DNA from: Candidatus Bathyarchaeota archaeon
GTDB taxonomy: Archaea; Thermoproteota; Bathyarchaeia; TCS64; PIYN01
Assembly (NCBI GenBank): GCA_003601775.1
Contig: PIYN01000001.1
Span: forward strand, 27,758 to 91,757
Reading direction: 5' to 3'
DNA length: 64,000 bases
A program made the translations under genes and the position numbers. This document shows positions 11,751-46,819 of this stretch, one piece after another (the first letter of the stretch is position 1; every line of letters starts with the position of its first letter). The notes below the pieces were generated by a model. It was not told where the DNA came from. It worked only from the letters and a program-made list of their open reading frames with translations, and did no database searches.

Positions 11751-14700
11751 ATGACGAGGACATCTACATACCTTCTCCTACTTTTGATGCTATCAGCAGC
11801 GATGCTACAGCCGATGGCTCTTCCGACGATCGCCCAGTCCCCAACCACCGGGACCATCCAAGGAGTCGTCTATGACCGCGTCACCGGCGAACCCATAGCG
11901 AATGCGAGGGTGGAGTTACGCCTCTCAAACGAATCTTGGACGTGGTTCAACGATACTTGGACCAACGCTGATGGGGAGTACTCCTTCGAGGTCCCGCCTG
12001 GGACCTATCATATCGTGGCGGATAAGTGGCCCAACTACACCGTGCCTCAGGTTGAGAAGTTTGTCGAGGTTGAGGCGGGGTCAACGGTCTCCGTCGACCT
12101 CTTCCTCTGGCCTACGGGCCGGGTCAACGGAACTGTGGCGTATGAGGGCATGACCTCGGAACAAGGCGCCGACGTGCTCTTCGTGAACGCGACCTCGGGA
12201 AATGTCGTGGCGAGGAAGTACGCTGGAGTCTGGGATGGAGGGTACATCCTGGACGTGCCCGTGGGGGACTACGACATCCTCGCCTTCGGCTGGGGCTATG
12301 GCCCCGGGCGGATGACCGACGAGATCTCCACCATCTCCGTCCTCAAGGGCGAGGAGACCCCCGTGGATATAGACCTCCGGGACTCGGGGATGGAGGTCTG
12401 GGTCCATACCCATGGGTGGAGGTGGGAGTACATGCCAGGGGCGTCGATGACCTGCATCGTGGAGGTCCAGAACACCACGACCTGGGAGCCGATCTCCAAC
12501 GCCTCCATCGTCCTCTACTTATTCGGCCCCGTCGATTGGCCCCACAGTGAGCCCTTCACCTACAGCGCAAGCTTCGACGACCTGGTGGAGGTGGAGCCGG
12601 GTAAGTATATCGCCAGGCTGGAGGTCCCATCTGACCTCTCCCCGGGGCAGTACAACATCTTCGCGGCAGTCAGGGAGGGAGGGCGGCTGGGTCTGGGGGA
12701 GATGTGGCTCTCCATCATCCAGTACAGGCTGGAGTGGTGCCACGCGAAGTCGGTCTACTCCCCCTCCGAGGAACTCTCCTTCAGGTTCACCGTCGACGAC
12801 GGCTCGGAGTACGTCACGGACTTGGAGATCTCCTACGCCATAGTGGAGCAGTTCAACGGGACCGAGTGGGTTCATAATGTCCTTGAGACCGGGAAGGCGA
12901 CCTATAATGAGGAGCTGAAGGAGTACGAGGTCACGGCGGAGGGCGTCACTGTCGTCGAGGGACACAAGTATAGGCTCTCCCTCTCCGTCGGCCAGAACAC
13001 CTACGACTGGTGGTTCGAGGCAGGCGACACGCCGGTGGTCCTGAAGGCTCTCTCCGAGTACCCGGTTCACATAGAACTCGGGATCAGGGACTACCCACCC
13101 TTCGTCTTCACCTGCGACAGGAAGGTCGTCATCATCGACGAGGAGGCCTACTACACGAAGATGCGGCTCCCCATCGCTGATGTAGACTGGATCCACCTCT
13201 ACTACGACAACGTATCGACGCCAGCGATGGACATCTTCGAGAGCTGGGAGATGGGACCCAACGCCACAGCCCTAATCGACCTTAACGACACCTTCGTATC
13301 CTTCACCACGGTCCCTGCCGGCGAGATCAGGGGCGTCATCAGGGACGATGAGACCGGTGAGCCGCTGGGGGACGTCGAGGTGCTGGGGATACCCATCAAG
13401 TACGGCGAAGCCGCGAGGTGGGCCTACGCCCGATCAGACTGGGATGGCTCCTACAGGCTCCCGGTCGTGGCGGGGAGGGCCTACCTCCTGAGGTTCTCCT
13501 CCGCCCTCTACGAGGTCTACAAGACGGATAACGAGACCCATGGCTATCGGGTGATGGAGCCCGGGGCGGTGGCGACGGTCGATGTGAACCTGACGAAGGT
13601 GCCGACGGGCGTCCTGACGGGCGTCGTCTTCTGGGACGTCGACGTGGACGGGGTCTACAACAGCTCCATAGATAAGCCCCTCTCCGACGTCTGGATCGGC
13701 TTCCACGACTACTCCTGGAACTGGCTCGGTGGCGTCACCACGGCGGCGAACGGGAGGTACACCTTCACGGTGAGGGCTGACACCTTCCTCCGCATCACGG
13801 CTTGGCTGAATGAGACCTTCCGCTCGAGGCCCATCGAGGGAGTCTCGGTCGCGGAGGGGGAGACGCTGAGACTCGATATACCGCTGGAACGGGCGATCAT
13901 CATCAGGGGCCGGATCGAGGGACCCGGGTGGGTCGACTGTCTACTCCTCGACGGGGACTATAATATCGTGGATAGGATCGGCGAGGGCGGTGGGTGGGAC
14001 TTCCAGTGGAGCGTCCCCGCCTCCGTGGAGACCCTCCTCTTCCGGACCTGGGGGGACTACTACCCGACAGAGGTGTCGCTCCCCAAGGTGAAGACGGAGG
14101 AGGAGTACGACATAGGAGTCATCGAGATGAACGCCACGACCCTGGACACCTGGTCCTACATGAAGGACTGGGACGAGGAACGTCAGCCAGGGGAGTCCGT
14201 CCTCTTCTACGTCGAGGCGGTGAACCGGTCGAGCTGGTCCGATAGGAGCGTGGAGGGGCTGGAGGTCAGCTACATGCTCTGGGACTCGACGGGGCGGTTC
14301 CTCGGCAGCGGCACGGGCGTCTACAAGGACGGGCGATACTTGGTGAATGTCTCCATCCCGCTGGAGGCGAAGCCGGGGCCGATCGAGCTGATCTTCATGG
14401 CGGAGAACGCCTCTCTCAACTACTACGGGGTATGCGGCGGATGGTTCCACATCACGACGCTGAAGATCGTGACCCTGAAGGAGGCGACGCCCTACTCGAC
14501 GGAGGAGTCACCGACCTTCGCCTGGCTCGTCCTCAACGCCTCCAAGCTCCCCGCCAAGGACGTCCACCTCGAGTACGAGGTCTACTCGACCTCTGGCGCC
14601 TGGGAGCAGATAGCCGCTGGGGACATCAGGGGGAGCCCGACCGGCGTCTACAATATCACCCTCCCACCCCAGGAGGAGGGAGGCTACCAGCTCCACGTCG

Positions 14701-17336
14701 TCTTCGACAAGCAGCTTGACCGATGGATATGGTTTGACGTCCTGGAGAACCTAACGAAGGTGAAGGTCTATGGACACGTCACGGACAAGGACGGCAGGCC
14801 CGTGAAGATGGCGGTGGTGGACCTCAGCGGGGGGTTGGAGGACCCCACGGGGAGATATCCGGGGGGCTACTGGGTCCACTACGTCACCATGACGAACGCC
14901 TCCGGCTACTATGAGGCCTTCATCCCCAAGGGAGGCTATGGGGTACACGTGACGAAGGGCTCGATGAGGACGCTCCCTGAGTGGCTCTGGATCGAGGTGC
15001 CTCCAAGGGTCTTCGACTTCACCCTCTACCAAGTCGGCTTCCTGGAGGGGAGGGTCATCGACCCGCCTCTGGGACAGGAGCCTGAACCAAGTCCTGAGGG
15101 GCCGATCTGGGTCGCGGTGACGATCAACGCGACTCTGACCTGGACGAACCTCTGGGACGCCTCCACGCCAGATCAGCACCTACCACCCTCCGGCACGACC
15201 TCCTACCTACCCGGAGTGGAGGTGGGAGACGAGGCCAACTACACCATCATGGTCTTCTTCGAGTCCAACGATCCCTCCGTCATCGAGGAGATGAAGAACC
15301 CGCCGGAGAACGAGACCGGTAGGATGCCGATGAATGGGACGATCACCGTCACGGTCCTCGAGGTCGACGGGAGCAACGTCACCCTCCTCTTCAGGAACTA
15401 CGACGAGAATGACGCCCTCAGGGAGGAGTACCTCTACTGGATCGACGTCGAGACGGGGGACACGATGGAGGAAGGGGAGGGGCCACCTCTCCTGATAGCG
15501 GCGAACCTCACCGCCGGAGACCACCTCTTCAACTTCTCAGAGGCACCGGTGATAGAGGAGACCATCGAGAGGCTGGTGACGGGCAAGTGGAGACTGGCTA
15601 ATCTACTCCACCAGAACGCCACAGAGGAGACACGCCTCCTCCTATGGGACAGGACAACGGGGATCCTCATCGAGGCGACCATATTCTCCAACGAGACCCT
15701 CACCCAGGAGCCGGGACCAGAACCCGGACCAGGACCCGAGCCTGAACCTGGACCAGAGCCGGGACCGGAGCCGGTTCCCGAGGGCGGAGGATACGAGATA
15801 GGGGCACAGGTGCTCTTCTGGAACTCTACCACGGGGAAGTTGGTCACCATGGAGTGGGTCTGGGGCTACTTCACGATCGCCGCCCCGACGGGTACCTACG
15901 ACCTCACCTTCGCGGACTGGGGGCTGATACCCCGGACGATCTACAACGTGACCATAGAGTCCGATGAGACGACGGACGTCGGCGACGTGAAGCTGTACCG
16001 GGTCGACCCGAGGTATGAGATGTGGACGGACTGCAGCCCCTGGCAGACGGTGCCGGGGAGGAACGTCACTATCGAGATCGATCTCTCCCAGAACAACTGG
16101 CAGCTCGAGTTATCGGAGAGCATAACGGGGCTGGTGGAGGAGAACTTCACCATCTACCTCATTGGGTGGAGGTGGCCCCAGCCCCCGACGGGATACGAGA
16201 AGGTACAGTTCGCCGTCGAGGAGGGCCCCGAGGGCGTCTATACCCTGAATATCACCATCCCGGAGGACGCTGAGGCGGGCTTCTGGGACGGGAGGGTCAT
16301 CGTCTCGACGGCTAACGGGACCTATCTGGTGAACTTCGGCTTCAACCTCGTCTCGCTCTACGTCGGCGCGACGCCACAGAAGCGCATCTTCGACCCAGGG
16401 GAGACCGTCTACCTCGTCACCATCGTGACGACACCAGACAACACCCAGGTCACGGGACTCGAGGACGTCGACTTCAGGATCCAGATCTTCGGACCCTACG
16501 GGGAGGTCTCAGGCAACTTCACATCAACCTTCTACGAACTGGGACACGGCGTCTACCTCATGGAGTTCTCCATCCCCAACGGGACGAAGCCCGGAGGATA
16601 CTCGATAGACGTGACGGTCACCGTCCCAGGCGTAGGCTCAGCCACAGACTGGCAGTGGTTCGAGATCGCGGGGAAGAAGGAGGAATACGGGCCCGGACCG
16701 GGTCCCGAGCCAGGTCCAGGACCGGCGCCTCCACCGCCACCTCCGCCTGAGGAGGAGAGGCCCCTCTTCGTGGTCGCGGCCAACCTAACTGAGGGTGACA
16801 CGCTCTTCGATGTCACCGAGGCCCCTGTCATCGACGAAACTCTCGAGGAGTTCTTCGCTGGGACGACCCGGCTGGTCAACTACCTCTACAAGGATGATAT
16901 CACCCCGGATGTGGAGGAGCATCTGACGGTGGGCTGGGATCGATCCACAGGACTGTTGTGCATAGTGGTCCATGAGGTCAACAAGACGAGTCCCGAGGGC
17001 AACACCTACATCTCCACCACCTTAACCCTGACCTGGACAAGCCTCTGGAACGAGACCACGCCACCCCAGAGCCTACCGGCGACCGGTGAGACAGAGTACC
17101 TCCCCGGCGTCTATGTAGGGGCCGAGGCTGAGTACAACTTCACGGTGTACTGGGAGTCGACGGACCCCTACTTCGTCTACGAGGGACCGGCGAATGGTAC
17201 GATAAGCCTGGAGATAACAGATGTCTACGACTCCACCGTCAAGATACATGTCACACAATACGAGGAGGGCATGGACATGCCGGTACGAGACGAGGAGTTC
17301 AACATCGATCTAACAACTGGCGAGATCTTCTATTAA
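11751..17336 (+). CDS. giant secreted cell-surface glycoprotein (1861 aa) with signal peptide, many N-glycosylation sequons, Pro/Glu-rich linkers and an internally duplicated, permuted C-terminal domain pair
   Basis: The N-terminus is a signal peptide (MTRTSTYLLLLLMLSAAMLQPMALPTIAQS). There are dozens of N-x-S/T sequons. Two PGPEPGPGPEPEPGPEP linkers occur at ~15708-15777 and ~16689-16748. Domain pair A1-B1 (15131-15700) recurs as B2-A2 (16762-17333). No C-terminal TM anchor. Confidence 0.7.
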   Translation: MTRTSTYLLLLLMLSAAMLQPMALPTIAQSPTTGTIQGVVYDRVTGEPIANARVELRLSNESWTWFNDTWTNADGEYSFEVPPGTYHIVADKWPNYTVPQVEKFVEVEAGSTVSVDLFLWPTGRVNGTVAYEGMTSEQGADVLFVNATSGNVVARKYAGVWDGGYILDVPVGDYDILAFGWGYGPGRMTDEISTISVLKGEETPVDIDLRDSGMEVWVHTHGWRWEYMPGASMTCIVEVQNTTTWEPISNASIVLYLFGPVDWPHSEPFTYSASFDDLVEVEPGKYIARLEVPSDLSPGQYNIFAAVREGGRLGLGEMWLSIIQYRLEWCHAKSVYSPSEELSFRFTVDDGSEYVTDLEISYAIVEQFNGTEWVHNVLETGKATYNEELKEYEVTAEGVTVVEGHKYRLSLSVGQNTYDWWFEAGDTPVVLKALSEYPVHIELGIRDYPPFVFTCDRKVVIIDEEAYYTKMRLPIADVDWIHLYYDNVSTPAMDIFESWEMGPNATALIDLNDTFVSFTTVPAGEIRGVIRDDETGEPLGDVEVLGIPIKYGEAARWAYARSDWDGSYRLPVVAGRAYLLRFSSALYEVYKTDNETHGYRVMEPGAVATVDVNLTKVPTGVLTGVVFWDVDVDGVYNSSIDKPLSDVWIGFHDYSWNWLGGVTTAANGRYTFTVRADTFLRITAWLNETFRSRPIEGVSVAEGETLRLDIPLERAIIIRGRIEGPGWVDCLLLDGDYNIVDRIGEGGGWDFQWSVPASVETLLFRTWGDYYPTEVSLPKVKTEEEYDIGVIEMNATTLDTWSYMKDWDEERQPGESVLFYVEAVNRSSWSDRSVEGLEVSYMLWDSTGRFLGSGTGVYKDGRYLVNVSIPLEAKPGPIELIFMAENASLNYYGVCGGWFHITTLKIVTLKEATPYSTEESPTFAWLVLNASKLPAKDVHLEYEVYSTSGAWEQIAAGDIRGSPTGVYNITLPPQEEGGYQLHVVFDKQLDRWIWFDVLENLTKVKVYGHVTDKDGRPVKMAVVDLSGGLEDPTGRYPGGYWVHYVTMTNASGYYEAFIPKGGYGVHVTKGSMRTLPEWLWIEVPPRVFDFTLYQVGFLEGRVIDPPLGQEPEPSPEGPIWVAVTINATLTWTNLWDASTPDQHLPPSGTTSYLPGVEVGDEANYTIMVFFESNDPSVIEEMKNPPENETGRMPMNGTITVTVLEVDGSNVTLLFRNYDENDALREEYLYWIDVETGDTMEEGEGPPLLIAANLTAGDHLFNFSEAPVIEETIERLVTGKWRLANLLHQNATEETRLLLWDRTTGILIEATIFSNETLTQEPGPEPGPGPEPEPGPEPGPEPVPEGGGYEIGAQVLFWNSTTGKLVTMEWVWGYFTIAAPTGTYDLTFADWGLIPRTIYNVTIESDETTDVGDVKLYRVDPRYEMWTDCSPWQTVPGRNVTIEIDLSQNNWQLELSESITGLVEENFTIYLIGWRWPQPPTGYEKVQFAVEEGPEGVYTLNITIPEDAEAGFWDGRVIVSTANGTYLVNFGFNLVSLYVGATPQKRIFDPGETVYLVTIVTTPDNTQVTGLEDVDFRIQIFGPYGEVSGNFTSTFYELGHGVYLMEFSIPNGTKPGGYSIDVTVTVPGVGSATDWQWFEIAGKKEEYGPGPGPEPGPGPAPPPPPPPEEERPLFVVAANLTEGDTLFDVTEAPVIDETLEEFFAGTTRLVNYLYKDDITPDVEEHLTVGWDRSTGLLCIVVHEVNKTSPEGNTYISTTLTLTWTSLWNETTPPQSLPATGETEYLPGVYVGAEAEYNFTVYWESTDPYFVYEGPANGTISLEITDVYDSTVKIHVTQYEEGMDMPVRDEEFNIDLTTGEIFY
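15708..15777 (+). repeat. low-complexity Pro-Glu/Pro-Gly coding repeat (linker 1) inside giant glycoprotein gene
   Basis: The protein sequence here is EPGPEPGPGPEPEPGPEPGPEPVPE. The nucleotide string ccgggaccagaacccggaccaggacccgagcctgaacctggaccagagccgggaccggagccg is imperfectly repeated. Confidence 0.7.
16689..16748 (+). repeat. low-complexity Pro-Glu/Pro-Gly/poly-Pro coding repeat (linker 2) inside giant glycoprotein gene
   Basis: The protein sequence is GPGPGPEPGPGPAPPPPPPPEEE. It is a second copy of the linker type at 15708, placed before the duplicated domain pair. Confidence 0.7.
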
Positions 17337-21990: not shown

Positions 21991-23205
21991 CTACTCCAAG
22001 AGGGTTACTGTGACCTCCTCCCCCTCTTCGATGACATCGACGTTGAGGGGTATGACGATGTACCCGTCGGCCTCCGACATGCTGGTGATAGCCCCCGACT
22101 CCTTGAAGGCCTGGTAGGCTTTTCCCTCCCTGATCCTCACCGTGAGGAACTGCACCCTCCCCGAGGAGGAGACGAACCTATGCCCCATCCTCACCCGCAC
22201 CTTCCTCGGCTCCTTCTTGGGCAATCTCGCCATCTTCCTCACGGCCGGTGCGAGAAAAAGGTAGGCGTTGCTGAGGCAAGAGGTGGGGTACCCTGGCATG
22301 CCGAGGAGAGGTCTCCCGTCGATGATGCCGAAGAGGGTGGGCTTGCCCGGCTTCACCTGGACCCCGTGGAAGAGGACCTCCCCCACCTCCTCGACGACGC
22401 GGTAGAGCAGGTCCCGTGCCCCCACGGAGCTCCCCCCGGAGAGGACGATCATATCGTCACTTAGGGTCTCCTCGATGGCCGACCTCAGGTCCTCATGGGC
22501 ATCGGGGACGATGCCACGTCTAATGGGCTTCGCCCCGTTGGCCACGACGACGGCCGAGAGGGTGTAGGAGTTGATGTCGTAGACCTCCCCCTCCCCGAGC
22601 TCCGACCCCACCTCCCTCACCTCCCTCCCCGTCGAGAGGATGGAGACCCTGGGCCTCTCATAGGCCTCGACGGCTCTCCTCCCGAGGGCCGCGAGGACGC
22701 CGACCTTAGGCGGCGTGAGGAGGACGCCGGCCTTAAGGACCGTTGTTCCCTCTTCTATGTCTTCACCCCTCGGTGCCACGTTGGCGCCGGGGTAGACGGG
22801 CCTCTGAACCTCGACGATCCCGTCTTCTTCTTTGGTGAACTCGACCATGACGACGGCGTCTGCCCCCTTGGGAATGGGGCAGCCGGTCGCGATCTGGACG
22901 CACTCTCCCTTCCCTATCTCTCCCCTGAAGGGCTCCCCGGGGTAGGCTGAGCCGATGAGTCGCAGCTTCTTCGGCTTGAAGGTCGAGGCCCCGTAGGTGT
23001 CCTCGGCCCTGACGGCGTAGCCGTCCATGGCGGCCCTGTCGAAGGGTGGGATGGAGATCTCCGCTATGATGTCCTCCGCCAGGACCCGCCCATGGGCTTC
23101 TTCGAGTGGAACTTTCTCCGTCCGTTCTATGGGTCTGACGTTCTCCAGGATGATCCTCATCGCCTCCTCGTAGGGGGTGAGCGTCTTGAAGGGCTCCATC
23201 CTCAT
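21991..23205 (-). CDS. moeA: molybdopterin molybdenum/tungsten transferase
   Basis: 404 aa with MoeA domain order: an N-terminal domain containing FDRAAMDGYA, a central MoCF-binding domain with GGSSVG, and a C-terminal beta domain. Confidence 0.85.
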   Translation of the reverse strand: MRMEPFKTLTPYEEAMRIILENVRPIERTEKVPLEEAHGRVLAEDIIAEISIPPFDRAAMDGYAVRAEDTYGASTFKPKKLRLIGSAYPGEPFRGEIGKGECVQIATGCPIPKGADAVVMVEFTKEEDGIVEVQRPVYPGANVAPRGEDIEEGTTVLKAGVLLTPPKVGVLAALGRRAVEAYERPRVSILSTGREVREVGSELGEGEVYDINSYTLSAVVVANGAKPIRRGIVPDAHEDLRSAIEETLSDDMIVLSGGSSVGARDLLYRVVEEVGEVLFHGVQVKPGKPTLFGIIDGRPLLGMPGYPTSCLSNAYLFLAPAVRKMARLPKKEPRKVRVRMGHRFVSSSGRVQFLTVRIREGKAYQAFKESGAITSMSEADGYIVIPLNVDVIEEGEEVTVTLLE

Positions 23206-23699
23206 CTATTCACCTCCCAGAGCATGTGCCCCAGCGCCGGGAGTATGATCCTCTTTAAACCCAGCTCCACGGCGCCCCGGGAGCCGGGGAGGGAGAAGAT
23301 TATCTTCCTCCCCACCGTCCCCGCCATGGCCCTGCTGAGGATCGCCGCCTCCCCGATCTCCTCGTAGCTCAGCCTCCTGAAGAGCTCCCCGAAGCCCTCG
23401 AGCCTCTTCTCCAGGAGCTCCATGACGGCCTCGACTGTCTGGTCCTTGGAGCTTATCCCCGTCCCGCCGCTGGTGATGATCACCTCCACCCTCTCGTCGC
23501 TGAGGAGCCTCCTCAGGGCCTCCTTTATCGCCTCCCTGTCGTTCCCCACGATCTTGTAGGCGTGTACCCTGTGCCCGGCCTCCTCCAAGAGCTGGATGGC
23601 CCTCCTCCCCGTCTCGTCAGTCCTCTCATCCCTCGTGTCGCTCGTCACTAGGACGGCGCAGCCGGCGTGCTCCCTCCTCCTCTCCCTATGCTCCCTCAT
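23202..23699 (-). CDS. moaB: molybdenum cofactor biosynthesis protein MoaB/MogA (MoCF-binding domain)
   Basis: The sequence ITSGGTGISSKD, reverse-translated from 23202-23699, is the MogA/MoaB GGTG motif. I chose the internal Met start (MREHRE...) over the longer Arg/Gly-rich extension in the track ORF. Its stop overlaps the moeA start. Confidence 0.75.
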   Translation of the reverse strand: MREHRERRREHAGCAVLVTSDTRDERTDETGRRAIQLLEEAGHRVHAYKIVGNDREAIKEALRRLLSDERVEVIITSGGTGISSKDQTVEAVMELLEKRLEGFGELFRRLSYEEIGEAAILSRAMAGTVGRKIIFSLPGSRGAVELGLKRIILPALGHMLWEVNR

Positions 23700-23704
23700 C
23701 TCTC

Positions 23705-24166
23705 TCACTCCTTCCTCTTCTCCACCACTCGGACCTCTGTGATCCGGGTCGTTGGGTACTGCCCCTCCTCGTCCTTCTCTAGGTACTTCACCATGTCCCA
23801 GAGGGTGAGGAGGGCGACCGTCACGCCGGTGAGGGCCTCCATCTCCACCCCTGTCTTGTAGTCGGCGACGACCCTGCACCTCGCCTCCACGTGGTCCTCA
23901 CCTATCCTGAATGAGACGTCGACCTTCGTCAGGGGTATGGGGTGGCAGAGGGGTATCAGCTCCGAGACCCTCTTAGCGGCGAGGATCCCCGCGACCTCCG
24001 CGACGGGGAAGGGGTCGCCCTTCTTGATCGTCCCCTTCCTAATGGCCTCGAGGGTCTCCTTCCTCAGGAGGATCCTCCCAGCCGCCTCGGCGGTCCTGTG
24101 GACGACCCTCTTCTCCGAGACGTCCACCATGTCTAGGGGGTTGACCTCCCCGCCCCGCTCACCCAT
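23705..24166 (-). CDS. moaC: cyclic pyranopterin monophosphate synthase accessory protein
   Basis: 153 aa. Conserved MoaC motifs: MVDVSEK, AKRVSELIPLCHP and GVEMEALT. Confidence 0.85.
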   Translation of the reverse strand: MGERGGEVNPLDMVDVSEKRVVHRTAEAAGRILLRKETLEAIRKGTIKKGDPFPVAEVAGILAAKRVSELIPLCHPIPLTKVDVSFRIGEDHVEARCRVVADYKTGVEMEALTGVTVALLTLWDMVKYLEKDEEGQYPTTRITEVRVVEKRKE

Positions 24167-24584
24167 CTTCTTCGCCCTCCACCCAGAGGCCCCCCTCCGG
24201 GGTATACTCCTTCTTCCATATCGGCGCCAATCTCTTCACCTCCTCCAATATGAACCTACAGGCCTCGAAGGCCTCCTTCCTGTGGGCTGAGGCGACGGCG
24301 ATGAGGAGGATGTTCTCCGAGACCTTGAGCGTCCCGATGCGGTGGATGATCACGGCCTCCTCCACCCCAAACCTCTCGAGGACCCTCCTCCTGATCCCCT
24401 CCAGTTCCCTCAGGGCCATCTCCTCGTAGGCCTCCACCTCGAGGCGCTCCACACAGCGGCCCCGGGACTCCCCCCGGACGATGCCGAGGAAGGCAACGAT
24501 AGCCCCCGCATCCCTCCTCCTCAGGCCCTCGAGGACCTCCCCCACAGAGAAGTCCTCCCGAGTGATCCTGATCATCCCACTCAA
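24159..24584 (-). CDS. moaE: molybdopterin synthase catalytic (large) subunit
   Basis: 141-aa MoaE fold (IVAFLGIVRG...IHRIGTLKVSENILLIAVASAHRKEAFEAC). Translationally coupled to moaD and moaC. Confidence 0.8.
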   Translation of the reverse strand: MSGMIRITREDFSVGEVLEGLRRRDAGAIVAFLGIVRGESRGRCVERLEVEAYEEMALRELEGIRRRVLERFGVEEAVIIHRIGTLKVSENILLIAVASAHRKEAFEACRFILEEVKRLAPIWKKEYTPEGGLWVEGEEDG

Positions 24585-24817
24585 CCTCCACTCACAGATG
24601 GGAGGAGCGCCACGATATCCCCCTCCCTCAGCCTCCGCTCAGGGCCTGACCGGACGCCGTTGACGGCGACCAGCAGTTTCCTGCGTCCCCGTAACTCCGG
24701 GCGGGCCTCCCTCAGAGCCTCCAGGAGGTCCCTGACGGTGGAGCCCTCCTGGACCTCGACCTCCTCCCTCTCGAGGCCTACCTCCTCCCTGATGGAGGCG
24801 AAGTACCTGACGGTCAC
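24581..24817 (-). CDS. moaD: molybdopterin synthase sulfur-carrier (small) subunit, ThiS/MoaD fold ending in Gly-Gly
   Basis: The C-terminus is ...LLPSVSGG*, the diglycine typical of MoaD. The VTVRYFASIREE region is beta-grasp-like. The start is probably GTG at 24817 or TTG at 24823, not the long Arg-rich extension in the track ORF. Confidence 0.65.
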   Translation of the reverse strand: MTVRYFASIREEVGLEREEVEVQEGSTVRDLLEALREARPELRGRRKLLVAVNGVRSGPERRLREGDIVALLPSVSGG

Positions 24818-24824
24818 CCTCAAC

Positions 24825-25781
24825 TCAGTCCCTCCAATAGGGCTCTCTCCTGGAGACCGCCTCCTTGAAGGCCTCCACCAGCGCATCCCCTCCGCCTCCT
24901 CTCCTCAATAGGGGTGCTACATCCACGAGGTTATCGTTCCTCATCAGGCAGGGCTTCAGCCTCCCATCTGAGGTCACCCGGAGGCGTGTGCAGTACCTGC
25001 AGAACTCCGTGTTATGCATCGGTCTCACGATCTCCACCACCCCTCCCCCCTTCAGGTAGTACTGCCTCCTCCTCTGGAGCTCTCTCACCCGAACCCTCTG
25101 GGACCTCGCCTTCAGCATCTCCTCTATGTCACGGAGGTCGTGGTGGAGGCTCTCCCAGTAGGGCCCTGTCCCCGCCTGCACGGGCTGGAACTCGATGAGC
25201 TGTAGGATCGCCCCATGCTCCTTGGAGAACTCGATCATCCGGGGGATCTCCCCGTCGTTCAGACCCCTCAGGACCACCATGTTCAGCTTCACGGGCTCCA
25301 GGCCGCTCTCAATGGCTGCCTCCACCCCCTCCACCACCTCGTTGAGCATGTCCCTCCCCGTGATCCTCCTGAAGGTCTCGGGGTCCAGGGAGTGGAGGCT
25401 GATATTCGCCCGTCGCAGCCCCGCTTCGTGGAGGTCTTGAGCGAACTTCCCCAGGAGGGACCCGTTCGTCGTCATGGAGACCTCGTCGACGTGGGGGGCG
25501 ATCCCGGAGACGATCTCCACGATATCCCTCCGGATCAGCGGCTCCCCTCCCGTGAGCTTGACCTTCCTCATCCCCAGGGCCGAGGCGACCTCGACGAGTT
25601 CCACGATCTCCTCCGCAGAGAGTTCCCCATGGGGGTTCAGCTCCCCCTCCCTGTGACAGAAGAAGCACTCGAAGTTACACCTCTGTGTCACCGAGATCCT
25701 GAGGCTGTTCACGGGTCTCCCAAAGGGGTCACGGAGCAGTCCCCCTCCCCCCTCCCGTCCCATCTCCCACCCCTCGTCCAA
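24825..25781 (-). CDS. moaA: GTP 3',8-cyclase, radical SAM
   Basis: Radical-SAM cluster motif CNFECFFCHREG. The C-terminal auxiliary-cluster cysteines CRYCTRLRVTSDGRLKPC are present. The first gene of the moa operon. Confidence 0.85.
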   Translation of the reverse strand: MDEGWEMGREGGGGLLRDPFGRPVNSLRISVTQRCNFECFFCHREGELNPHGELSAEEIVELVEVASALGMRKVKLTGGEPLIRRDIVEIVSGIAPHVDEVSMTTNGSLLGKFAQDLHEAGLRRANISLHSLDPETFRRITGRDMLNEVVEGVEAAIESGLEPVKLNMVVLRGLNDGEIPRMIEFSKEHGAILQLIEFQPVQAGTGPYWESLHHDLRDIEEMLKARSQRVRVRELQRRRQYYLKGGGVVEIVRPMHNTEFCRYCTRLRVTSDGRLKPCLMRNDNLVDVAPLLRRGGGGDALVEAFKEAVSRREPYWRD

Positions 25782-25902
25782 GATGGTTTTATCCTAATAG
25801 TCGAGATTCCCTTAAAACTGTTATGTCGCTTCATGCATATCGAGGTTCTTTGATGGAAAAGGGTAATAACCCAGGGAGGGGAGTAGGTGATGGTGGAGAC
25901 TG

Positions 25903-26682
25903 ATGGTTCAGTTGGCTGAGATCACCTGGACGGATGCCAAGGAGTTCTTCTCGGAGTCGGATGTCGTGATCCTACCCGTGGGGAGCACCGAGCAGCATGG
26001 ACCGCACAACCCCCTGGGGACGGATTACCTGAACGCGGAGGCAGTGAGCCGGGTCGTCGGGGAGAGGACGAAGACCCTCGTCCTCCCCGTCATCCCCGTC
26101 GGGGTCTCCGAGCATCACAGGCAGTTCCCCGGGACCCTCTGGGTCCCGCCCCAGGTCTTCCGGGAGTATGTGGAGGCCGTCGCCCTCTCGGCGGCGAGCC
26201 ATGGGGCGAGGAAGATCGTCATCGTGAACGGCCACGGCGGGAACACGGCGAGCCTCCTGGAGGTCGCCGGTCACCTTAGGAGGGAGTGTGGGGTCTTCGC
26301 CGTCGTCGTCATGGCCTTCCCGCCTGGGATGATGGAGATCGGGGGAGGACATGCCGGGGCGGGGGAGACGAGCGCGAACCTCTACTGGCACCCCCATCTC
26401 GTCAAGATGGAGAGGGCGCCGAGGACGAGGCAGAAGGAGCGACTCGGGGGGCTGAGGATGCAGGGCATGGGTCGAGTCGGGCCGGCTCAGTTCCCCTGGG
26501 ACACCATCGACCTGACGGAGACCGGCCTCCTCGGAGGGGCTGGGCAGGACCTGGACGCTTCCACGGCCTCTGCGGAGAAGATCAAGCCGATGATGGAGAA
26601 GTTCCTCGACAACCTCTGCGAGTTCGTAGAGGCCCTGAAGAAGGAGGATGTCAAGAGTCTCCTGTGCAAGCCCCACAAGTAA
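25903..26682 (+). CDS. creatininase-family amidohydrolase (ArfB-like), paralog 2
   Basis: Motifs GSTEQHGPHNPLGTD and VNGHGGN. Same fold as the ORF at 4264-5061. Confidence 0.65.
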   Translation: MVQLAEITWTDAKEFFSESDVVILPVGSTEQHGPHNPLGTDYLNAEAVSRVVGERTKTLVLPVIPVGVSEHHRQFPGTLWVPPQVFREYVEAVALSAASHGARKIVIVNGHGGNTASLLEVAGHLRRECGVFAVVVMAFPPGMMEIGGGHAGAGETSANLYWHPHLVKMERAPRTRQKERLGGLRMQGMGRVGPAQFPWDTIDLTETGLLGGAGQDLDASTASAEKIKPMMEKFLDNLCEFVEALKKEDVKSLLCKPHK

Positions 26683-26781
26683 TCCCTCTTTTTATACTTA
26701 TGGGGTGGACTCAACGCCTCGCCTGTAGGTCGCTTCATTTATCTATCAAGAGAGGCATCTAACCTCCTTGGAGGAGTCCCC

Positions 26782-27723
26782 TTGAGGCATATCCTCATAG
26801 ACACGGACCCTGGGATCGACGACGCCCTCGCCCTGATCTTCGCCCTCAACTCCCCGGAGGCGGGGGTCGAGGGGGTCACGACCGTCGTGGGGAATGTCAC
26901 CCAGGAGAAGGCCCTCAAGAACGCGCTGAAGATCCTTGAGTTCCTCGGTGTCGAGGGAGTCCCCGTGGCCCCGGGGAGCACAAGGCCCCTCCTCCGGGAG
27001 CCGAGGGTCGCGGAGGAGATCCATGGGAAGACGGGGCTTGGAGGAGCCGTCCTCCCAGAGCCGAGGCTGAGGCCAGATGAGAGGTCCGCCGTGGGGCTCA
27101 TCCTCGATAAGGTGGAGGAGTTTGGGAGGGACCTGACGTTGGTCGCCATAGGTCCGCTCACCAACATCGCCTCGGCCCTCTTGGTCGAACCCCGTTTGGC
27201 GGAGGAGGTGGGGCGCCTCGTCATCATGGGGGGCGCCTTCCATGTGACGCCCTACGGGTTTGGGAACGTCACTCCCGTCGCCGAGTTCAATATCTGGCAT
27301 GACCCCGAGGCCGCGAAGATCGTCTTCGACTCCGGGATCCCCCTCACCGCCGTCGGCCTCGATGTCACCACGGACCCGAGGAACCGCCTCTCACCGGAAG
27401 CCCTCAGGGAGATTGAGGGCTTGGGCACGAGGAGGGCCTGCCTCGTCGCCGACCTCTGCCGGGACCTCGTCCACCGCTTCGGAGGCCTCAACCTCCACGA
27501 CCCCCTCGCCGTCGCCGCCGCCATCGACCCGAGGCTTGTGAGGACCAAGCCCTATGTCGTCGATGTGGAGACGAGGGGGGAGCTGACCCTTGGGATGACC
27601 ATCGCCGACCGGCGGGACCCGAGGCGTGTGTGGAGGCGGAGGGAGCCCAACGTCGACGTCTGCGTCTCCGTCGACGGGGACCGCTTTATGGAGCTATTCA
27701 TGGAGCGGGTCGTCGGGGTATGA
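26782..27723 (+). CDS. iunH: inosine-uridine preferring nucleoside hydrolase
   Basis: N-terminal DTDPGIDDALAL, the Ca-binding DxDxxxDD fingerprint of nucleoside hydrolases. 313 aa. Confidence 0.8.
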   Translation: MRHILIDTDPGIDDALALIFALNSPEAGVEGVTTVVGNVTQEKALKNALKILEFLGVEGVPVAPGSTRPLLREPRVAEEIHGKTGLGGAVLPEPRLRPDERSAVGLILDKVEEFGRDLTLVAIGPLTNIASALLVEPRLAEEVGRLVIMGGAFHVTPYGFGNVTPVAEFNIWHDPEAAKIVFDSGIPLTAVGLDVTTDPRNRLSPEALREIEGLGTRRACLVADLCRDLVHRFGGLNLHDPLAVAAAIDPRLVRTKPYVVDVETRGELTLGMTIADRRDPRRVWRRREPNVDVCVSVDGDRFMELFMERVVGV

Positions 27724-28679
27724 TCGACCTCGTCTGCTGTGGGGCCATAAACTGGGATATAACCCTCTTCGTGGAGAGGCTCCCACGCCCTGGGGAGGAG
27801 GTCCCCGTCCATGAGATCCAGAGAACCTCAGGCGGGACGGCGGCGAACGTCTCAGTGGCAGCAGCCCGCATCCTAGGCCCGGGCAGGGTAGCCTTCATCG
27901 GCGCCCTTGGCGGCGACGAGATCGCCGAGGAGCAGATCGCCATCCTCAGGGCTGAGGGGGTCGACCCATCCGGCGTCCTGAGGGTGCCGGGAAAGGAATC
28001 AGGGCAGGCCTACATCATCGTTGGTCCCGAAGGGGAGAACGAGATCCACACCTACTTCGGGGCAAACCTCCACCTCACCCCCCAATCCCTGAGAGACCAG
28101 GAGAGGCTTCGCCTCATCGAGGAGGCCAAGGTCACCGTCATCATGGACCCGCCCCTCGAGACGGCGAAGGCCCTCGCGGAGCTCTCCAAGGAGGAGGGGA
28201 ACAGGGTGATCTGGGACCCGGGCGTCTACGCGGAGCTCGGCCTCGCCGCTCTCAAGGGCATCCTCCGGAACGTCGACTACTTCATCCTCAACCACTTAGA
28301 GTTCGAGGGCCTCCTCGGGACGAGCGACCCATGGGAGGTCACGGCGAGGCTGGGGGCGGTGAACCCCAGCGTCAAGGCGGTCATTAAGAGGGGTGCGGAG
28401 GGGTGCATCCTCTGCTCCAGCGGTGAGGAGCCCACCTGGGTCAGGGCGGTCCCACTGGAGCGACTCGGGATGAGGGTGGTGAATACCGTGGGGTGTGGCG
28501 ACGCCTTCATCGGGGCCCTCGCCGCCTCCCTCGTAGAGGGCTTCGACGAGGTTGAGGCCTTGAGACGTGGCTGCGCAGCCGGGGCCTTCAAGGCGACGAG
28601 GAAGGAGACCCGAGGCGGACCGACGGCCGAGGAACTCCAGGAGTTGCTGAGGAGATGGGCGGAGCTGGAGGGGGGATAG
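27720..28679 (+). CDS. ribokinase/PfkB-family sugar or nucleoside kinase
   Basis: Has the N-terminal GG motif (VCCGAINWDI...GGTAANV). The C-terminal PfkB signature is VNTVGCGDAFIGAL. The start codon overlaps the iunH stop (ATGA). Confidence 0.75.
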   Translation: MIDLVCCGAINWDITLFVERLPRPGEEVPVHEIQRTSGGTAANVSVAAARILGPGRVAFIGALGGDEIAEEQIAILRAEGVDPSGVLRVPGKESGQAYIIVGPEGENEIHTYFGANLHLTPQSLRDQERLRLIEEAKVTVIMDPPLETAKALAELSKEEGNRVIWDPGVYAELGLAALKGILRNVDYFILNHLEFEGLLGTSDPWEVTARLGAVNPSVKAVIKRGAEGCILCSSGEEPTWVRAVPLERLGMRVVNTVGCGDAFIGALAASLVEGFDEVEALRRGCAAGAFKATRKETRGGPTAEELQELLRRWAELEGG

Positions 28680-28743
28680 CCGCCCCTTAGGGGCTCAATC
28701 AGGGCACCGTCGATTGGGATTTATGGCATGGGGGCGCTGGGCA

Positions 28744-28755
28744 ATTTATTTATAC
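28744..28755 (+). promoter_or_regulatory. TATA box of wtp operon promoter
   Basis: aTTTATTTATAc lies about 45 bp upstream of the wtpA ATG (28799) in an AT-rich spacer. Confidence 0.5.
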
Positions 28756-28765
28756 GCTTTCATCG

Positions 28766-28785
28766 ATATGTTTGTCAAAACATAT
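28766..28785 (+). promoter_or_regulatory. perfect 8-4-8 inverted repeat (ATATGTTT-gtca-AAACATAT), candidate operator for a tungstate/molybdate-responsive regulator
   Basis: Seen directly in the sequence: atatgtttgtcaaaacatat. It sits ~12 bp downstream of the TATA box and overlaps the predicted transcription start of the wtpABC operon. Confidence 0.5.
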
Positions 28786-28798
28786 TGAGGATGGGGCG

Positions 28799-29824
28799 AT
28801 GAGGGGGAAGATCCTCCTGGGGTTGGTCTTGGCCGCCGTGGTGGCCTTGGGGCTCTTCCTCGGCCCCCTGTCGAGGCGGGGGGTCGTCCTGAGGGTCTTC
28901 TGTGCCGGGAGCCTCACCCTGCCCCTGGAGGAGATCAAGGGGGAGTTCGAGCGACAGCATCAGGACGTCAGGGTTGAGATCGAGCCCTCGGGGAGCGTCG
29001 CCTGCGTGAGGAAGGTCGTCGAGGTCGGTAAGGCCGCGGACGTCGTCGCCGTGGCGGACCATAGACTCATCCCCACCATGATGATGCCGGAACACGCCGA
29101 CTGGTACATCGTCTTCGCCACGAATCAGATGGTCCTGGCCTACTCGAATAGCAGCCGGCACGCGGGGGAGGTCAACTCCATCAACTGGTACGAGGTCCTA
29201 CGGGACCCGGAGGTCCGGTGGGGCTTCTCGAACCCCAACATCGACCCCTGCGGCTACAGGGCCCTGATGGTGATCCAGCTCGCGGAGTGGCTGTACAACG
29301 ACTCCAGCATCTTCGACGACCTCATCATCGAGAACACGGCCATCAAGGCCTCGGAGGAGGGTGGCAGGTGCTCCATCCTGGTCCTAAAGGACCTTGAGCC
29401 GAACAGCAAGCGGGTCACTGTCCGAGATAAGTCCGTCGATCTCCTATCCCTCTTGGAGGAGGGGGGGCTGGATTATGCCTTCGAGTACCTCAGCGTCGCC
29501 GTACAGCACAACCTCAACTACGTGGTCCTCCCTCCAGCCATCGACCTCAGCGACCTCAGTAGAGCTGAGGAGTATGGGAGGGTCGTCGTCACCCTCGCCT
29601 CTGGAGAGAACATCATGGGGGCGCCGATAACCTACGGTGTCACGATACCGAAGAATGCTCCGAATAGGGATCTCGCCGAGGAGTTCATTGAGTTCCTGAT
29701 CGGCGACCCCGGGAGGGAGGTCTTCTCAAGGCTCGGGCAGCCCTCTCTCTCACCGGCGGTTGCCAGCGATCTGGAGGCCCTCCCCCCCTCCCTCAGGCCC
29801 TACTGCGAGGAGGCGTCTCCATGA
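28799..29824 (+). CDS. wtpA: tungstate/molybdate ABC transporter substrate-binding protein (WtpA/ModA-like)
   Basis: An N-terminal signal/TM anchor, then FCAGSLTLPLEE...PSGSVACVRKV...VADHRLIP. This is the periplasmic-binding-protein type II fold of the ModA/WtpA family. It is the first gene of a three-gene ABC operon next to Moco biosynthesis. Confidence 0.7.
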   Translation: MRGKILLGLVLAAVVALGLFLGPLSRRGVVLRVFCAGSLTLPLEEIKGEFERQHQDVRVEIEPSGSVACVRKVVEVGKAADVVAVADHRLIPTMMMPEHADWYIVFATNQMVLAYSNSSRHAGEVNSINWYEVLRDPEVRWGFSNPNIDPCGYRALMVIQLAEWLYNDSSIFDDLIIENTAIKASEEGGRCSILVLKDLEPNSKRVTVRDKSVDLLSLLEEGGLDYAFEYLSVAVQHNLNYVVLPPAIDLSDLSRAEEYGRVVVTLASGENIMGAPITYGVTIPKNAPNRDLAEEFIEFLIGDPGREVFSRLGQPSLSPAVASDLEALPPSLRPYCEEASP

Positions 29825-30627
29825 GGGGCTTAGATCTTCTCAGGCGCTACCCCCTCTCCGTGCTCTTCGCCGCCGTCGGCTCCCTGCTCCTCCTCTTCAC
29901 CGTCGTCGTCCTCTTTAACATGGTCTTCAGGCAGGTGGTCCTCAGGCCTGAGGGCCTCCTTGAGGCCGTCCGGGACCCCACAGTGATCCGCTCCATAGGC
30001 CTCACGATGTACGCCTCCCTCATGGCCACCCTCATCGCCGTCTCCCTTGGGACGCCCCTCGCCTACCTCCTCGCGAGGCATAGGTTCCCGGGGAAGAGCC
30101 TGGCGGAGGCCCTCGTCGACGTCCCCGTCGTCATCCCCCACAGCGTCGCGGGGATCGCCCTCTACGCCCTCTTCATGAGACACGGCGCCGTGGGGCGGGC
30201 CTTCTCCAGGCTGGGGGTCGTCTTCGAGGACTCCCTCTGGGGGGTCGTCGTCGCGATGCTCTTCGTCAGCGCTCCCTTCTACATCAACGCCGCCCGAGAA
30301 GGCTTCCGAGGTGTCGATCCGAGGTTGGAGAGGGTGGCGAGGAGCCTCGGCGCCGGGCAGTGGACGACCTTCTACAGGGTGACCCTTCCCCTCTCCCTCA
30401 GGAGCCTCATCTCGGGGGCGGTGATGTCCTGGGCCCGGGGGATCAGCGAGTTCGGCGCCATCATCTTCCTCGCCTACTACCCCATGGTCGCCCCCACCCT
30501 CATCTACTACAGGTTCACTATCCACGGCCTCACCGGCTCCCAGCCCGTCGCCGTCCTCCTCATCCTCCTCTGCCTCGCCATCTTCCTCGCCCTCCGCCTC
30601 TACACACGCCCAAGGAGAGGAAGGTGA
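29821..30627 (+). CDS. wtpB: tungstate/molybdate ABC transporter permease
   Basis: A 6-TM permease with the ABC-2 EAA-like loop (ARSLGAGQWTTFYRVTLP). It overlaps its neighbours at both ends (ATGA). Confidence 0.7.
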   Translation: MRGLDLLRRYPLSVLFAAVGSLLLLFTVVVLFNMVFRQVVLRPEGLLEAVRDPTVIRSIGLTMYASLMATLIAVSLGTPLAYLLARHRFPGKSLAEALVDVPVVIPHSVAGIALYALFMRHGAVGRAFSRLGVVFEDSLWGVVVAMLFVSAPFYINAAREGFRGVDPRLERVARSLGAGQWTTFYRVTLPLSLRSLISGAVMSWARGISEFGAIIFLAYYPMVAPTLIYYRFTIHGLTGSQPVAVLLILLCLAIFLALRLYTRPRRGR

Positions 30628-31676
30628 TGATCGTCCTCGAGGGGGTGAGCCTCACACTCGGCTCCTTCCAACTCAGGAGGATCAGCCTCAGGGTGGAGAG
30701 GGGGGAGTACTTCATCGTTCTCGGGCCGACGGGGGCCGGGAAGACCCTCCTCCTCGAGACCATAGCGGGCTTCCACACCCCGAGGGAGGGGCGGATCCTC
30801 ATAGATGGGGTGGACATGACCTACGCCCCGCCCGAGGAGCGGGGGATCGGCTTCGTCTACCAGGACTACCTCCTCTTCCCCCACTTGACGGTGGAGGAGA
30901 ACATCTCCTTCGGCCTGAGGGCGCGGGGACTCGCAGAGGAGGAGATCAGGGAGAGGGTCGCCCAAGTCATGAAGTCCCTCGGCATCCCACACCTCAGGGG
31001 CAGGTACCCGTCAACGCTCTCAGGGGGGGAGCAGCAGAGGGTCGCCCTCGCCAGAGCCCTGGCCATCTCCCCCAAGGTCCTCCTGCTGGATGAGCCCCTC
31101 AGCGCCCTCGACCCCCAGACGAGAGAGACGTTGAGGAGGGAGTTGAGGAGGGTGCACGAGTCCCTGGGGACGACGACGATCCACGTGACCCATGACAGGG
31201 TGGAGGCCCTCACGCTGGGCGATAGGGTGGCCGTCCTGATGGGGGGTGAGGTCGTTCAGGTGGGGGCGCCCGAGGAGGTCTTCGAGAGGCCTGGGGGGGT
31301 GGAGGTGGCGGAGTTCCTGGGCGTTGAGAACATCCTCAGCGGCGTGGTGAGGGCAAACAGGGGTGGCATAGCCGTCGTGGAGACCGAGGGTTTCCAAGTC
31401 ACCGCCATCTCCCCTATAGAGAGCGGCGAGGTGACCCTCTTCATCAGGCCCGAGAACATCATCCTCTCACGGAGCCGCCTGGAGAGCAGCGCGAGGAACT
31501 GCGTGGAGGGGCGGGTCACGGAGGTCACCCCCCTCGGCCCCACCGTCCTCGTCCACCTCGACAACGGGCTGAAGGCATCGATCACGAGGAGGTCCCTCGA
31601 GGAGATGGGGCTACGCCCCGGGAGGAGGGTCTACGCCTACTTCAAGGCAACCTCTGTCCACGTCGTCCCCAAGTAG
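30627..31676 (+). CDS. wtpC: tungstate/molybdate ABC transporter ATP-binding protein with C-terminal TOBE-like domain
   Basis: Walker A GPTGAGKT, signature LSGGEQQRVALARAL, Walker B LLLDEPLSALD, H-loop, plus a C-terminal MOP/TOBE-like beta domain. I used the internal ATG (MIVLEGV) as the start, not the long Pro/His-rich extension in the track ORF. Confidence 0.75.
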   Translation: MIVLEGVSLTLGSFQLRRISLRVERGEYFIVLGPTGAGKTLLLETIAGFHTPREGRILIDGVDMTYAPPEERGIGFVYQDYLLFPHLTVEENISFGLRARGLAEEEIRERVAQVMKSLGIPHLRGRYPSTLSGGEQQRVALARALAISPKVLLLDEPLSALDPQTRETLRRELRRVHESLGTTTIHVTHDRVEALTLGDRVAVLMGGEVVQVGAPEEVFERPGGVEVAEFLGVENILSGVVRANRGGIAVVETEGFQVTAISPIESGEVTLFIRPENIILSRSRLESSARNCVEGRVTEVTPLGPTVLVHLDNGLKASITRRSLEEMGLRPGRRVYAYFKATSVHVVPK

Positions 31677-31698: not shown

Positions 31699-32049
31699 TC
31701 AGACGAGGAAGGAGCGCCTCTCCTCCTTACGCTTCTGGACCTCGGGGATCTTCCCGAACTGCTTCTCATACTGGTTCAGGGTCTGGGTGAGCCAGTTCAG
31801 CAGACCCTTCGCCTGCATCGGCGTCAACACCAGCCTGCACTGCAGCGTCCTCCTGATGTAGACCTTGCTGCTGTCCGGGATGACCGAGGCCAGGGCCTCG
31901 TCGGCGCACATCTCATCCGTGTAGCAGATCATCTCGAAGAGGCCCGAGCGACTCCCCCCGAAGACCCCATCCACGATGACCGTCTTATAGTCCTCAGCCC
32001 TCACCGTCTCAACCCTGAGATCCCTCGGCTGGATCTTCCCCTGGAACAT
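31699..32049 (-). CDS. small conserved hypothetical protein
   Basis: A 116-aa ORF, last in a co-directional four-gene minus-strand cluster (34954 to 31699). No motif I can assign. Confidence 0.35.
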   Translation of the reverse strand: MFQGKIQPRDLRVETVRAEDYKTVIVDGVFGGSRSGLFEMICYTDEMCADEALASVIPDSSKVYIRRTLQCRLVLTPMQAKGLLNWLTQTLNQYEKQFGKIPEVQKRKEERRSFLV

Positions 32050-43898: not shown

Positions 43899-44789
43899 TT
43901 GGGTGAGACATTGATTAAGACAAATAAGGACAAGCTTGTCGTACAAGAGGTACTAGGGAAGATCTCTCATCCTGTAATGATTCAGAGTCGGGGCTATGTG
44001 ATCACCTGGGACGGCAAACCCAAGATCGGCTTGGGAATAGGCGGAATAAAATACAACGTTAAGGTGGGCGACCCCATCTTCGGTTGGCCTGAGGCAGAGT
44101 ACCTGGAGCCTGGCGTGGCCCTAGAGGGGATCGATGATCGGGCTAAAGGAGCGCTGCTCAATCTGAGTTGCGTCGGGAACGAAGTTAAGGTGATAAGTGG
44201 GGAAGGAAAGGGCCTTAAAGGCGTAGTGACCGGGAAGGCCGGATACGCTGGGGCGCCGGCGCACGTCCTCGCACATTTCTCGGATGAGGACTTAGAGAAG
44301 CTGGCCATCGGGGACAAGGTCCGTATCAAGGCAGAGGGCGTGGGTCTAGAGATCAAAGGCTTTGAGGGCAAGGTATTCAATGTATCACCCTCCTTCCTAG
44401 AATCCCTTGATCTTGAGCTAGAGGACGGGGAACTCATAGTACCCGTTGTTAAGGAGATCCCCGCGTACGCGATGGGCTCAGGCGTTGGTGGGGGAGCAGC
44501 GATGAGCGGGCACTGGTGTATACAGACCTGCCCACCTGAATTGGTGAAGGAATTGGGCTTAGAGGATCTAAGAATCGGCGATTTAGTGGCATGTAGAGAT
44601 ATCCTCATGTTATACGGTAAAGGTTACTATAAGGGGGCCATAACAGTCGGTATCATCGCGTTCGGTGCAAGCGATCGAGGGGGACATGGAGCAGGCGTCT
44701 TCGCTATCGCCGTATCGAAGGAGGGGAAGATTCGACCGAGGATCGATCCTGAAGCAAATGTAGCGAAGTATCTAGGACTGAAGAGATGA
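43899..44789 (+). CDS. conserved hypothetical protein, paralog A of a tandem pair (possibly a DUF4438-like family, unverified)
   Basis: 296 aa, soluble, Gly-rich motifs (IGLGIGGIKYNV, AMGSGVGGGAAMSGHWC, GASDRGGHGAGV). Collinear along its whole length with the downstream gene. Lower GC than the genome. Confidence 0.45.
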   Translation: MGETLIKTNKDKLVVQEVLGKISHPVMIQSRGYVITWDGKPKIGLGIGGIKYNVKVGDPIFGWPEAEYLEPGVALEGIDDRAKGALLNLSCVGNEVKVISGEGKGLKGVVTGKAGYAGAPAHVLAHFSDEDLEKLAIGDKVRIKAEGVGLEIKGFEGKVFNVSPSFLESLDLELEDGELIVPVVKEIPAYAMGSGVGGGAAMSGHWCIQTCPPELVKELGLEDLRIGDLVACRDILMLYGKGYYKGAITVGIIAFGASDRGGHGAGVFAIAVSKEGKIRPRIDPEANVAKYLGLKR

Positions 44790-46765: not shown

Positions 46766-46819
46766 GTCTGAATTGAATCAGACGATATGCCCCAATGTGA
46801 GACATTGGGGTGTCTGATT
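46766..46819 (+). ncRNA. structured element in AT-rich leader upstream of ftsZ (nested or alternative hairpins); function unknown
   Basis: Seen in sequence: an inner perfect hairpin ccccaatg-tgaga-cattgggg (46790-46810). It is enclosed by the stem aatcagac (46776-83) / gtctgatt (46812-19). An upstream gtctg (46766-70) could alternatively pair with cagac (46779-83). Confidence 0.3.

Follow-up and report, generated by a model that had tools for sequence, protein, structure and literature searches.

A probable ModE-type operator at the promoter of the wtpABC tungstate/molybdate uptake operon in a Candidatus Bathyarchaeota archaeon

The stretch of DNA analysed here (the window, 64 kb of a Bathyarchaeota metagenome-assembled genome with ~62% GC) carries on its forward strand the three genes of a tungstate/molybdate ABC transporter. 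The first of these, wtpA (28799-29824, +), encodes the substrate-binding protein, which matches the NCBIfam WtpA equivalog NF003196 at 413 bits against a cut-off of 355, and is 100% identical to P0001, an NCBI/JGI entry from a Candidatus Bathyarchaeota archaeon that NCBI has annotated as WtpA. It is followed by the permease gene wtpB (29821-30627, +), whose product has the Pfam domain BPD_transp_1 and finds its best NCBIfam match in WtpB at 312 bits, just below the cut-off of 340, and by the ATPase gene wtpC (30630-31676, +), whose product has the Pfam domains ABC_tran and, at its C-terminus, TOBE, with a best NCBIfam match to WtpC at 424 bits, just below the cut-off of 440. Convergent with wtpC lies an ORF of 116 aa (31699-32049, -) that has a weak match to DUF3467 (29.6 bits) and no match in NCBIfam, and nothing marks it as a regulator. 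Upstream of the transporter, and on the opposite strand, is an operon for molybdenum cofactor (Moco) biosynthesis, moaA-moaD-moaE-moaC-moaB-moeA (21991-25763, -), in which the Pfam domains Radical_SAM with Mob_synth_C, ThiS, MoaE, MoaC, MoCF_biosynth and MoeA_N/C were found. Three genes separate moaA from wtpA (25903-28679), and encode a creatininase family protein, an inosine-uridine nucleoside hydrolase and a PfkB kinase.

Several other features of the window stand apart from this locus. An ORF of 1861 aa (11751-17336) has an N-terminal hydrophobic segment and proline-rich linkers of the PEPGPG type, and so resembles a protein of large size that is secreted or on the surface; a polytopic membrane ORF of 739 aa adjoins it. 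The GC content falls to ~50-54% between 44000 and 47000, a stretch in which two paralogous ORFs lie in tandem (43899-44789 and 44786-45658) and an ORF of 193 aa (45869-46450) is also found. At the edge of this 50%-GC stretch, ~30-70 bp upstream of an FtsZ-like ORF (46850-47971), is a composite nested inverted repeat (46776-46822), AATCAGAC-gatatg-CCCCAATGT-gag-ACATTGGGG-t-GTCTGATT, which had no Rfam match and might act as an operator or terminator or encode a small RNA.

The original prediction concerned a palindrome just upstream of wtpA, and this palindrome, ATATGTTT-gtca-AAACATAT, is indeed there: ATATGTTTGTCAAAACATAT can be read directly at 28766-28785 (no strand assigned), with perfect 8-bp arms around a 4-bp spacer. 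It forms the core of a 24-bp dyad of the ModE type, CGATATGTTTGTCAAAACATATTG (28764-28787, no strand assigned), hereafter the box, which matches 15 of the 16 specified positions of the family consensus CGWTATGY-N8-RCATAWCG and departs from it at position 23, where it has T for C. The palindrome pattern occurs once in the window at three or fewer mismatches, versus 0.02 occurrences expected. Perfect inverted repeats with arms of 8 bp or more and loops no longer than 8 nt number 12 in the window; the wtpA palindrome, at 20% GC, is the sole AT-rich one among them, the other 11 having 53-79% GC. The 24-bp consensus is matched with one mismatch or fewer at two places in the real window, each in a promoter region of Mo/W genes, and at none in 200 simple shuffles of it. 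One further exact copy of the half-site ATATGTTT, at 55436-55443, is isolated, and was treated as chance in view of the 13 near-matches found to 7.1 expected.

The order of elements read from the window is ...GGCAATTTATTTATACGCTTTCAT CGATATGTTTGTCAAAACATATTG AGGATGGGGCG ATG..., where the ATG is the wtpA start codon at 28799 (not 28800). Upstream of the box is a BRE/TATA-like element, AATTTATTTATAC (28743-28755, +), read directly and with a presumed TATA function, within which the TATA-like 8-mer TATTTATA (28747-28754) agrees with TTTWWATA in all but one of its 8 positions and is separated from the box by 9 nt. Downstream is a Shine-Dalgarno (SD) sequence, GAGG (28787-28790, +), which is 8 nt before the ATG, and the box occupies the interval between the TATA-like element, which is conserved, and the SD/ATG. 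The original prediction had described this geometry correctly in outline and somewhat loosely in its distances: the palindrome does lie just downstream of the TATA-like element, but at a gap of 11 nt rather than 12, and it is close upstream of wtpA, but reaches from -33 to -14, counted from the start codon, and not ~15-30 bp. A scan for bacterial promoters and terminators, which is not applicable to archaeal promoters, had no match at the site. The TATA score itself is weakly discriminating, since a score of at least 6/8 was reached as well by 20 of the 31 segments taken as controls from downstream of the box, and for this reason a geometric argument was relied on instead: the box ends 11 nt before the ATG, and the wtpA core promoter must therefore overlap the box or sit immediately upstream of it. 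Transcription is predicted to start at about 28777 (+), inside the palindrome, at a C-A step of the spacer that is ~26 nt downstream of the centre of the TATA element, a placement that follows from the usual archaeal spacing between TATA element and transcription start site (TSS).

Three related Bathyarchaeota loci were found via their WtpA homologues, one with 94% identity (L001) and two with 66% (L002 and L003), and in all of them CGATATGTTT-N4-AAACATATTG lies before wtpA, with both 10-bp arms identical to those of the window. The arms are thus invariant in four loci, down to 66% WtpA identity, and among the same loci the 4-bp spacers vary (GTCA, CGAT, TAAC) and the flanks diverge. It is on account of this pattern, i.e., identical 10-bp arms amid diverged spacers and flanks, that we take the conserved unit to be the 24-bp dyad; the 20-bp element that had been proposed was right in its perfect 8-bp arms, but it fell short of the outer CG/TG dinucleotides. 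Fixed in this lineage are the outer right dinucleotide, TG instead of CG, and an A at position 3. The TATA-like element is conserved as well, AATTTATTTATAC being identical in L001 and L003 and replaced by TTTTTATAC in L002, and its gap to the box is 13 nt in L002 and 8 nt in the other three loci.

A second box of the same type, TGTTATGTCGCTTCATGCATATCG, with one mismatch to the 24-bp consensus, lies at 25819-25842 (no strand assigned) between moaA (-) and the creatininase-family gene (+), making the Moco biosynthesis operon a probable second target. The original prediction had named the lack of any other copy of the motif as a point that would count against it, an objection that fails with this related copy before moaA in the same window. 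The orthologous moaA boxes of L002 (9874) and L003 (5151) match RTTATGT-N8-RCATAAY perfectly, and in L016, a locus of the Methanocellales, a box lies directly upstream of moaA, so that related copies are found at moaA in the window, L002, L003 and L016, where a Mo/W regulon predicts them. A conserved TTTAAA-type element that could serve either of the divergent promoters adjoins the moaA box, on the side that is upstream with respect to moaA. As to the arrangement of these loci, the order of genes in the moa operon is the same in L002 and L003. In L002, moaA and wtpA are directly divergent, and both boxes are found within a single intergenic region of 185 bp (9816-10000); in L003, one gene, of the creatininase family, is inserted between moaA and wtpA (5245-6296); and in L001, as in the window, there are three. 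Each box has been kept with its own promoter across the arrangements of the window, L002 and L003. Near the end of the window is a stand-alone ORF of 151 aa (62926-63381) that has only a Molydop_binding domain (PF01568, 64 bits) and in this is similar to the small subunit, or to the C-terminal domain, of a Mo/W-pterin oxidoreductase; upstream of it, a ModE-type box was not found at up to four mismatches.

The breadth of this arrangement became apparent from a survey of 84 wtpA loci, 80 of them further loci from GTDB species representatives, which were scored for CGWTATGY-N8-RCATAWCG with at most two mismatches. The 200 bp upstream of wtpA (15,485 positions) held 38 matches, versus 9 in the other 1,081,961 positions, an enrichment of ~300-fold over the 84 loci, and a box was present upstream of wtpA in 31 of them. 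The box-bearing loci carry the labels Bathyarchaeia, ANME-1/Methanophagales, Methanomethylicota, Hadarchaeota, Hecatellales, Methanocellales and Archaeoglobales, among others. Typically, an AT-rich TATA-like element is found 0-15 nt upstream of the box, and in most related loci a GGTGA or GAGG Shine-Dalgarno sequence and the start codon follow directly 3' of it. Across the family, position 3 carries A as often as T, which places the window half-site CGATATGT inside the variation of the family. It could be argued that the palindrome is nothing but chance in intergenic DNA that is locally AT-rich within a 62% GC genome, where short palindromes do arise, or that it belongs to a signal that terminates transcription of the pfkB-family gene lying upstream. 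Set against the 0.02 occurrences expected, arms that are exactly conserved at 66% protein identity, the enrichment upstream of wtpA, and the finding of neither a terminator-like site nor a T-run after the stem, such readings have a vanishingly small probability, and we regard both chance and a terminator role as excluded by the conservation, the enrichment and the missing T-run.

The same survey bears on whether the symmetry of the box could be that of an RNA, as a hairpin in the wtpA 5' leader by the SD might control translation or mRNA stability. The segment 28763-28788 would, if transcribed, fold into an 11-bp stem that ends at the first base of the SD, and a stretch of 71 nt folds at -26.5 kcal/mol (z = -3.4 versus shuffles). 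However, across the family the half-sites vary independently of each other, with 12 AA, 9 TT, 8 AT and 6 TA combinations at positions 3/22, and the two positions are complementary in 58% of sites, as are positions 8/17, likewise in 58%. Since the half-sites choose A or T at 3/22 independently, pairing is not maintained and there are no compensatory changes; the arms are conserved as sequence, which is the signature of a site for a dimeric protein and not of a hairpin. In addition, the TATA-like element 9-11 nt upstream puts the predicted TSS inside the palindrome, in which case the left arm would not be transcribed, and an Rfam scan of the window returned one tRNA-Ser only and nothing at the palindrome. 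An RNA hairpin is consequently a most improbable explanation, although one to which we would grant slightly more than to chance.

If the box is a site for a dimeric protein, the precedents point to ModE, and the search for its gene was made across all loci with E. coli ModE as query and then with a profile of the archaeal matches. ModE homologues of 135-211 aa adjoin wtpABC in nine loci (L005, L007, L015, L016, L017, L020, L035, L055 and L065). Three of the nine were run in NCBIfam, where their best match was TIGR00637 (ModE repressor domain) at 77-87 bits, below the cut-off of 98.5, and the Mop domain TIGR00638 was above its cut-off in two of these three. A box is present in all nine loci with an adjoining modE versus 22 of the 75 others (Fisher p = 5.5e-5). 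A metagenome scan with GATATGTTT-N4-AAACATATT was less productive, the pattern being too loose for AT-rich DNA and too strict for other regulon members, and the matches listed were mostly chance in AT-rich contigs, with three that were informative. Two of these are on 60%-GC contigs, L116 (2874-2895) and L189 (1053-1074), where a modE-like gene is followed by CGATATGTTTTTGAAAACATATTG and then a modA-like gene; in the third, L198 (3294-3315) on a 37%-GC contig, the box is followed by a modE-like gene and then a WtpA homologue. Among the matches listed, the half-sites of L116, L189 and L198 are exactly those of the window (GATATGTTT / AAACATATT).

In the window itself, an unfiltered search with the archaeal ModE profile of all six-frame ORFs of at least 50 aa matched the TOBE domain of WtpC only, and the same profile had no match in L001-L003. 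The prediction that the regulator is not encoded in the window was therefore borne out, as neither a ModE nor any other Mop-domain regulator is encoded in the 64 kb, and a TunR-like candidate within them is thereby removed as well. For the 22 other box-bearing loci, a modE is likewise missing from the examined flank, and its absence from a flank is for that reason uninformative. As a separate observation, stand-alone Mop/TOBE ORFs of 74-146 aa, molbindin-like in character, adjoin wtpABC in five loci (L037, L039, L043, L047 and L049), among which L037 and L043 belong to the Methanosarcinales and L049 to the Methanophagales. These five are without an adjoining full-length modE, and a box precedes wtpA in L037 and L039 only.

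It was natural to ask whether a regulator outside the ModE family, e.g., another winged-helix factor that would have adopted the Mo-box in this lineage or a TunR-like fusion of a recombinase-type domain with Mop, could be the reader of the box. In favour of such a regulator are the missing modE in the 64-kb window and in L001-L003, the outer right TG and the A at position 3 that are fixed in the lineage, and a gene for an HTH_20 (HVO_A0261-like) regulator that adjoins moeA in L003. This last candidate was set aside, because the window lacks a homologue of it and the equivalent gene of L002 is unrelated to it. The motif, moreover, is within the variation seen at loci where modE adjoins wtpABC, the 22 other box-bearing loci lack modE in the examined flank too, and WtpC has the sole Mop/TOBE domain of the window. 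TunR, which together with ModE had been suggested as the type of oxyanion-sensing regulator involved, controls Mo/W homeostasis genes in sulfate-reducing bacteria and senses via Mop-like domains. It has a different DNA-binding domain from that of ModE, and that part of the suggestion was not upheld, there being no second Mop-domain protein in the window and the motif being that of ModE. Desulfovibrio mod clusters carry integrase-Mop fusion genes, and the mod-operon motif of delta-proteobacterial (Desulfovibrio) genomes with such fusions, CGGTCACG-N14-CGTGACCG (PMC545781), is unrelated to the window box. A regulator outside the ModE family is accordingly an improbable alternative, if the least improbable of those considered so far. 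The ModE part of the suggestion is supported by the core and register of bound sites, by conservation among orthologs, by the enrichment before wtpA and by the co-occurrence with modE, and we conclude that wtpABC, the tungstate/molybdate uptake operon, very probably has a ModE-type operator (Mo-box) with the palindrome at its core.

How such an operator might work can be proposed in some detail. A dimer of a ModE-family protein, with a winged-helix N-terminal domain and a Mop/TOBE oxyanion-binding domain, and encoded outside the window, would read the site, each subunit recognizing one of the half-sites CGATATGT and ACATATTG. As the 24-bp site fills the space between TATA and SD/ATG, the bound dimer would cover the TSS region and block the recruitment of RNAP by TBP/TFB. 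Assembly of the pre-initiation complex would thereby be prevented by ModE, probably in a form loaded with tungstate or molybdate, such that uptake would be off when these oxyanions are sufficient and on only when they are scarce, and the box at the moaA promoter would place Moco biosynthesis under the same regulator. In this proposal we infer the presence of a modE in this genome, and take the binding of ModE, the TSS, the direction of regulation and the effector from the precedents of E. coli and Methanosarcina acetivorans. A more speculative version, which we consider possible but rather unlikely, has one ModE acting as a dual-output switch that represses uptake at the wtpA box and activates Moco synthesis at the moaA box, or else has a lineage without modE in which a different protein reads the box. 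Were the dual-output switch true, it would mirror the dual role of ModE in E. coli and be the first archaeal case of activation by ModE.

For a ModE-type operator as proposed, the current understanding of how such operators work is unchanged, and since a ModE operator is a well-known kind of switch, we regard the finding as correct but ordinary. Its value lies elsewhere. It offers a testable regulatory link for tungsten/molybdenum homeostasis in uncultured Bathyarchaeota, in which wtpABC and the moa operon would be under one ModE-type box, and it shows that use of the Mo-box, which had been described in Proteobacteria and lately validated in Methanosarcina, extends to the wtpA promoters of many lineages of archaea. 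Mo/W regulons in metagenome-assembled genomes could also be annotated with the 24-bp consensus obtained in this analysis.

With respect to mechanism, archaeal repressors of the MDR1, LrpA, Phr and TrmB type bind between the TATA element and the TSS. Their operators lie downstream of or abutting TATA and cover the TSS, a placement that is predicted for the box as well, and a block to RNAP recruitment is the mechanism to be expected from it. The proteins and motifs belong to unrelated families, however, and the resemblance is one of mechanism only.

With respect to the motif, the upstream region of modA in E. coli K-12 contains CGTTATATTGTCGCCTACATAACG, which has the same 24-bp register and the outer CG. 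The E. coli modA operator, CGTTATAT-N8-ACATAACG, and the window box, CGATATGT-N8-ACATATTG, are both 24-bp dyads, with 14 of 24 positions identical, and both lie upstream of the gene for an oxyanion-binding uptake protein. The E. coli operator is bound by ModE-molybdate and lies over the TSS of modA, and ModE acts there on moaABCDE too, to which the second box of the window, at moaA, suggests a parallel. The differences are that E. coli has a bacterial sigma-70 promoter and a ModE with two Mop domains, whereas the promoter in the window is an archaeal one with TATA/BRE. The E. coli ModE consensus has also been quoted as ATCGNTATATA-N6-TATATANCGAT (PMC545781).

Also among the closest known systems is that of M. 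acetivorans, whose ModE, composed of an HTH domain and one Mop domain, binds RTTATGT-N8-RCATAAY by EMSA, with binding abolished by mutation or removal of a half-site (PMC12327845). Its sites, e.g., GTTATGTTTGATTAAACATAAC and GTTATGTTTATTTAAACATAAC, are a few tens of bp (24-33 bp for sites such as GTTATGTTTGATTAAACATAAC) before the start codons of tungsten/molybdenum enzyme operons such as fmd (formylmethanofuran dehydrogenase) and of operons for mod/wtp-type molybdate/tungstate transporters, and the original prediction of such archaeal sites is credited to Studholme and Pau in 2003 (PMC12327845). M. acetivorans ModE did not bind molybdate in vitro (PMC12327845), which makes the effector step an uncertain one even for that organism. 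Read as GATATGT-TTGTCAAA-ACATATT, the window site is identical to those of M. acetivorans in its TATGT-N8-ACATA core and its 22-bp register and has the inner TTT/AAA of many of them. Its sole departure from their consensus is a symmetric pair of changes, T>A at position 2 and A>T at position 21. The two also share an archaeal promoter context, and the ModE of M. acetivorans resembles the homologues that adjoin wtpABC in other archaea. In contrast, the site described here comes from a Bathyarchaeota metagenome-assembled genome in which no modE adjoins the transporter, and its targets here would be wtpABC and the moa operon, not nitrogenases.
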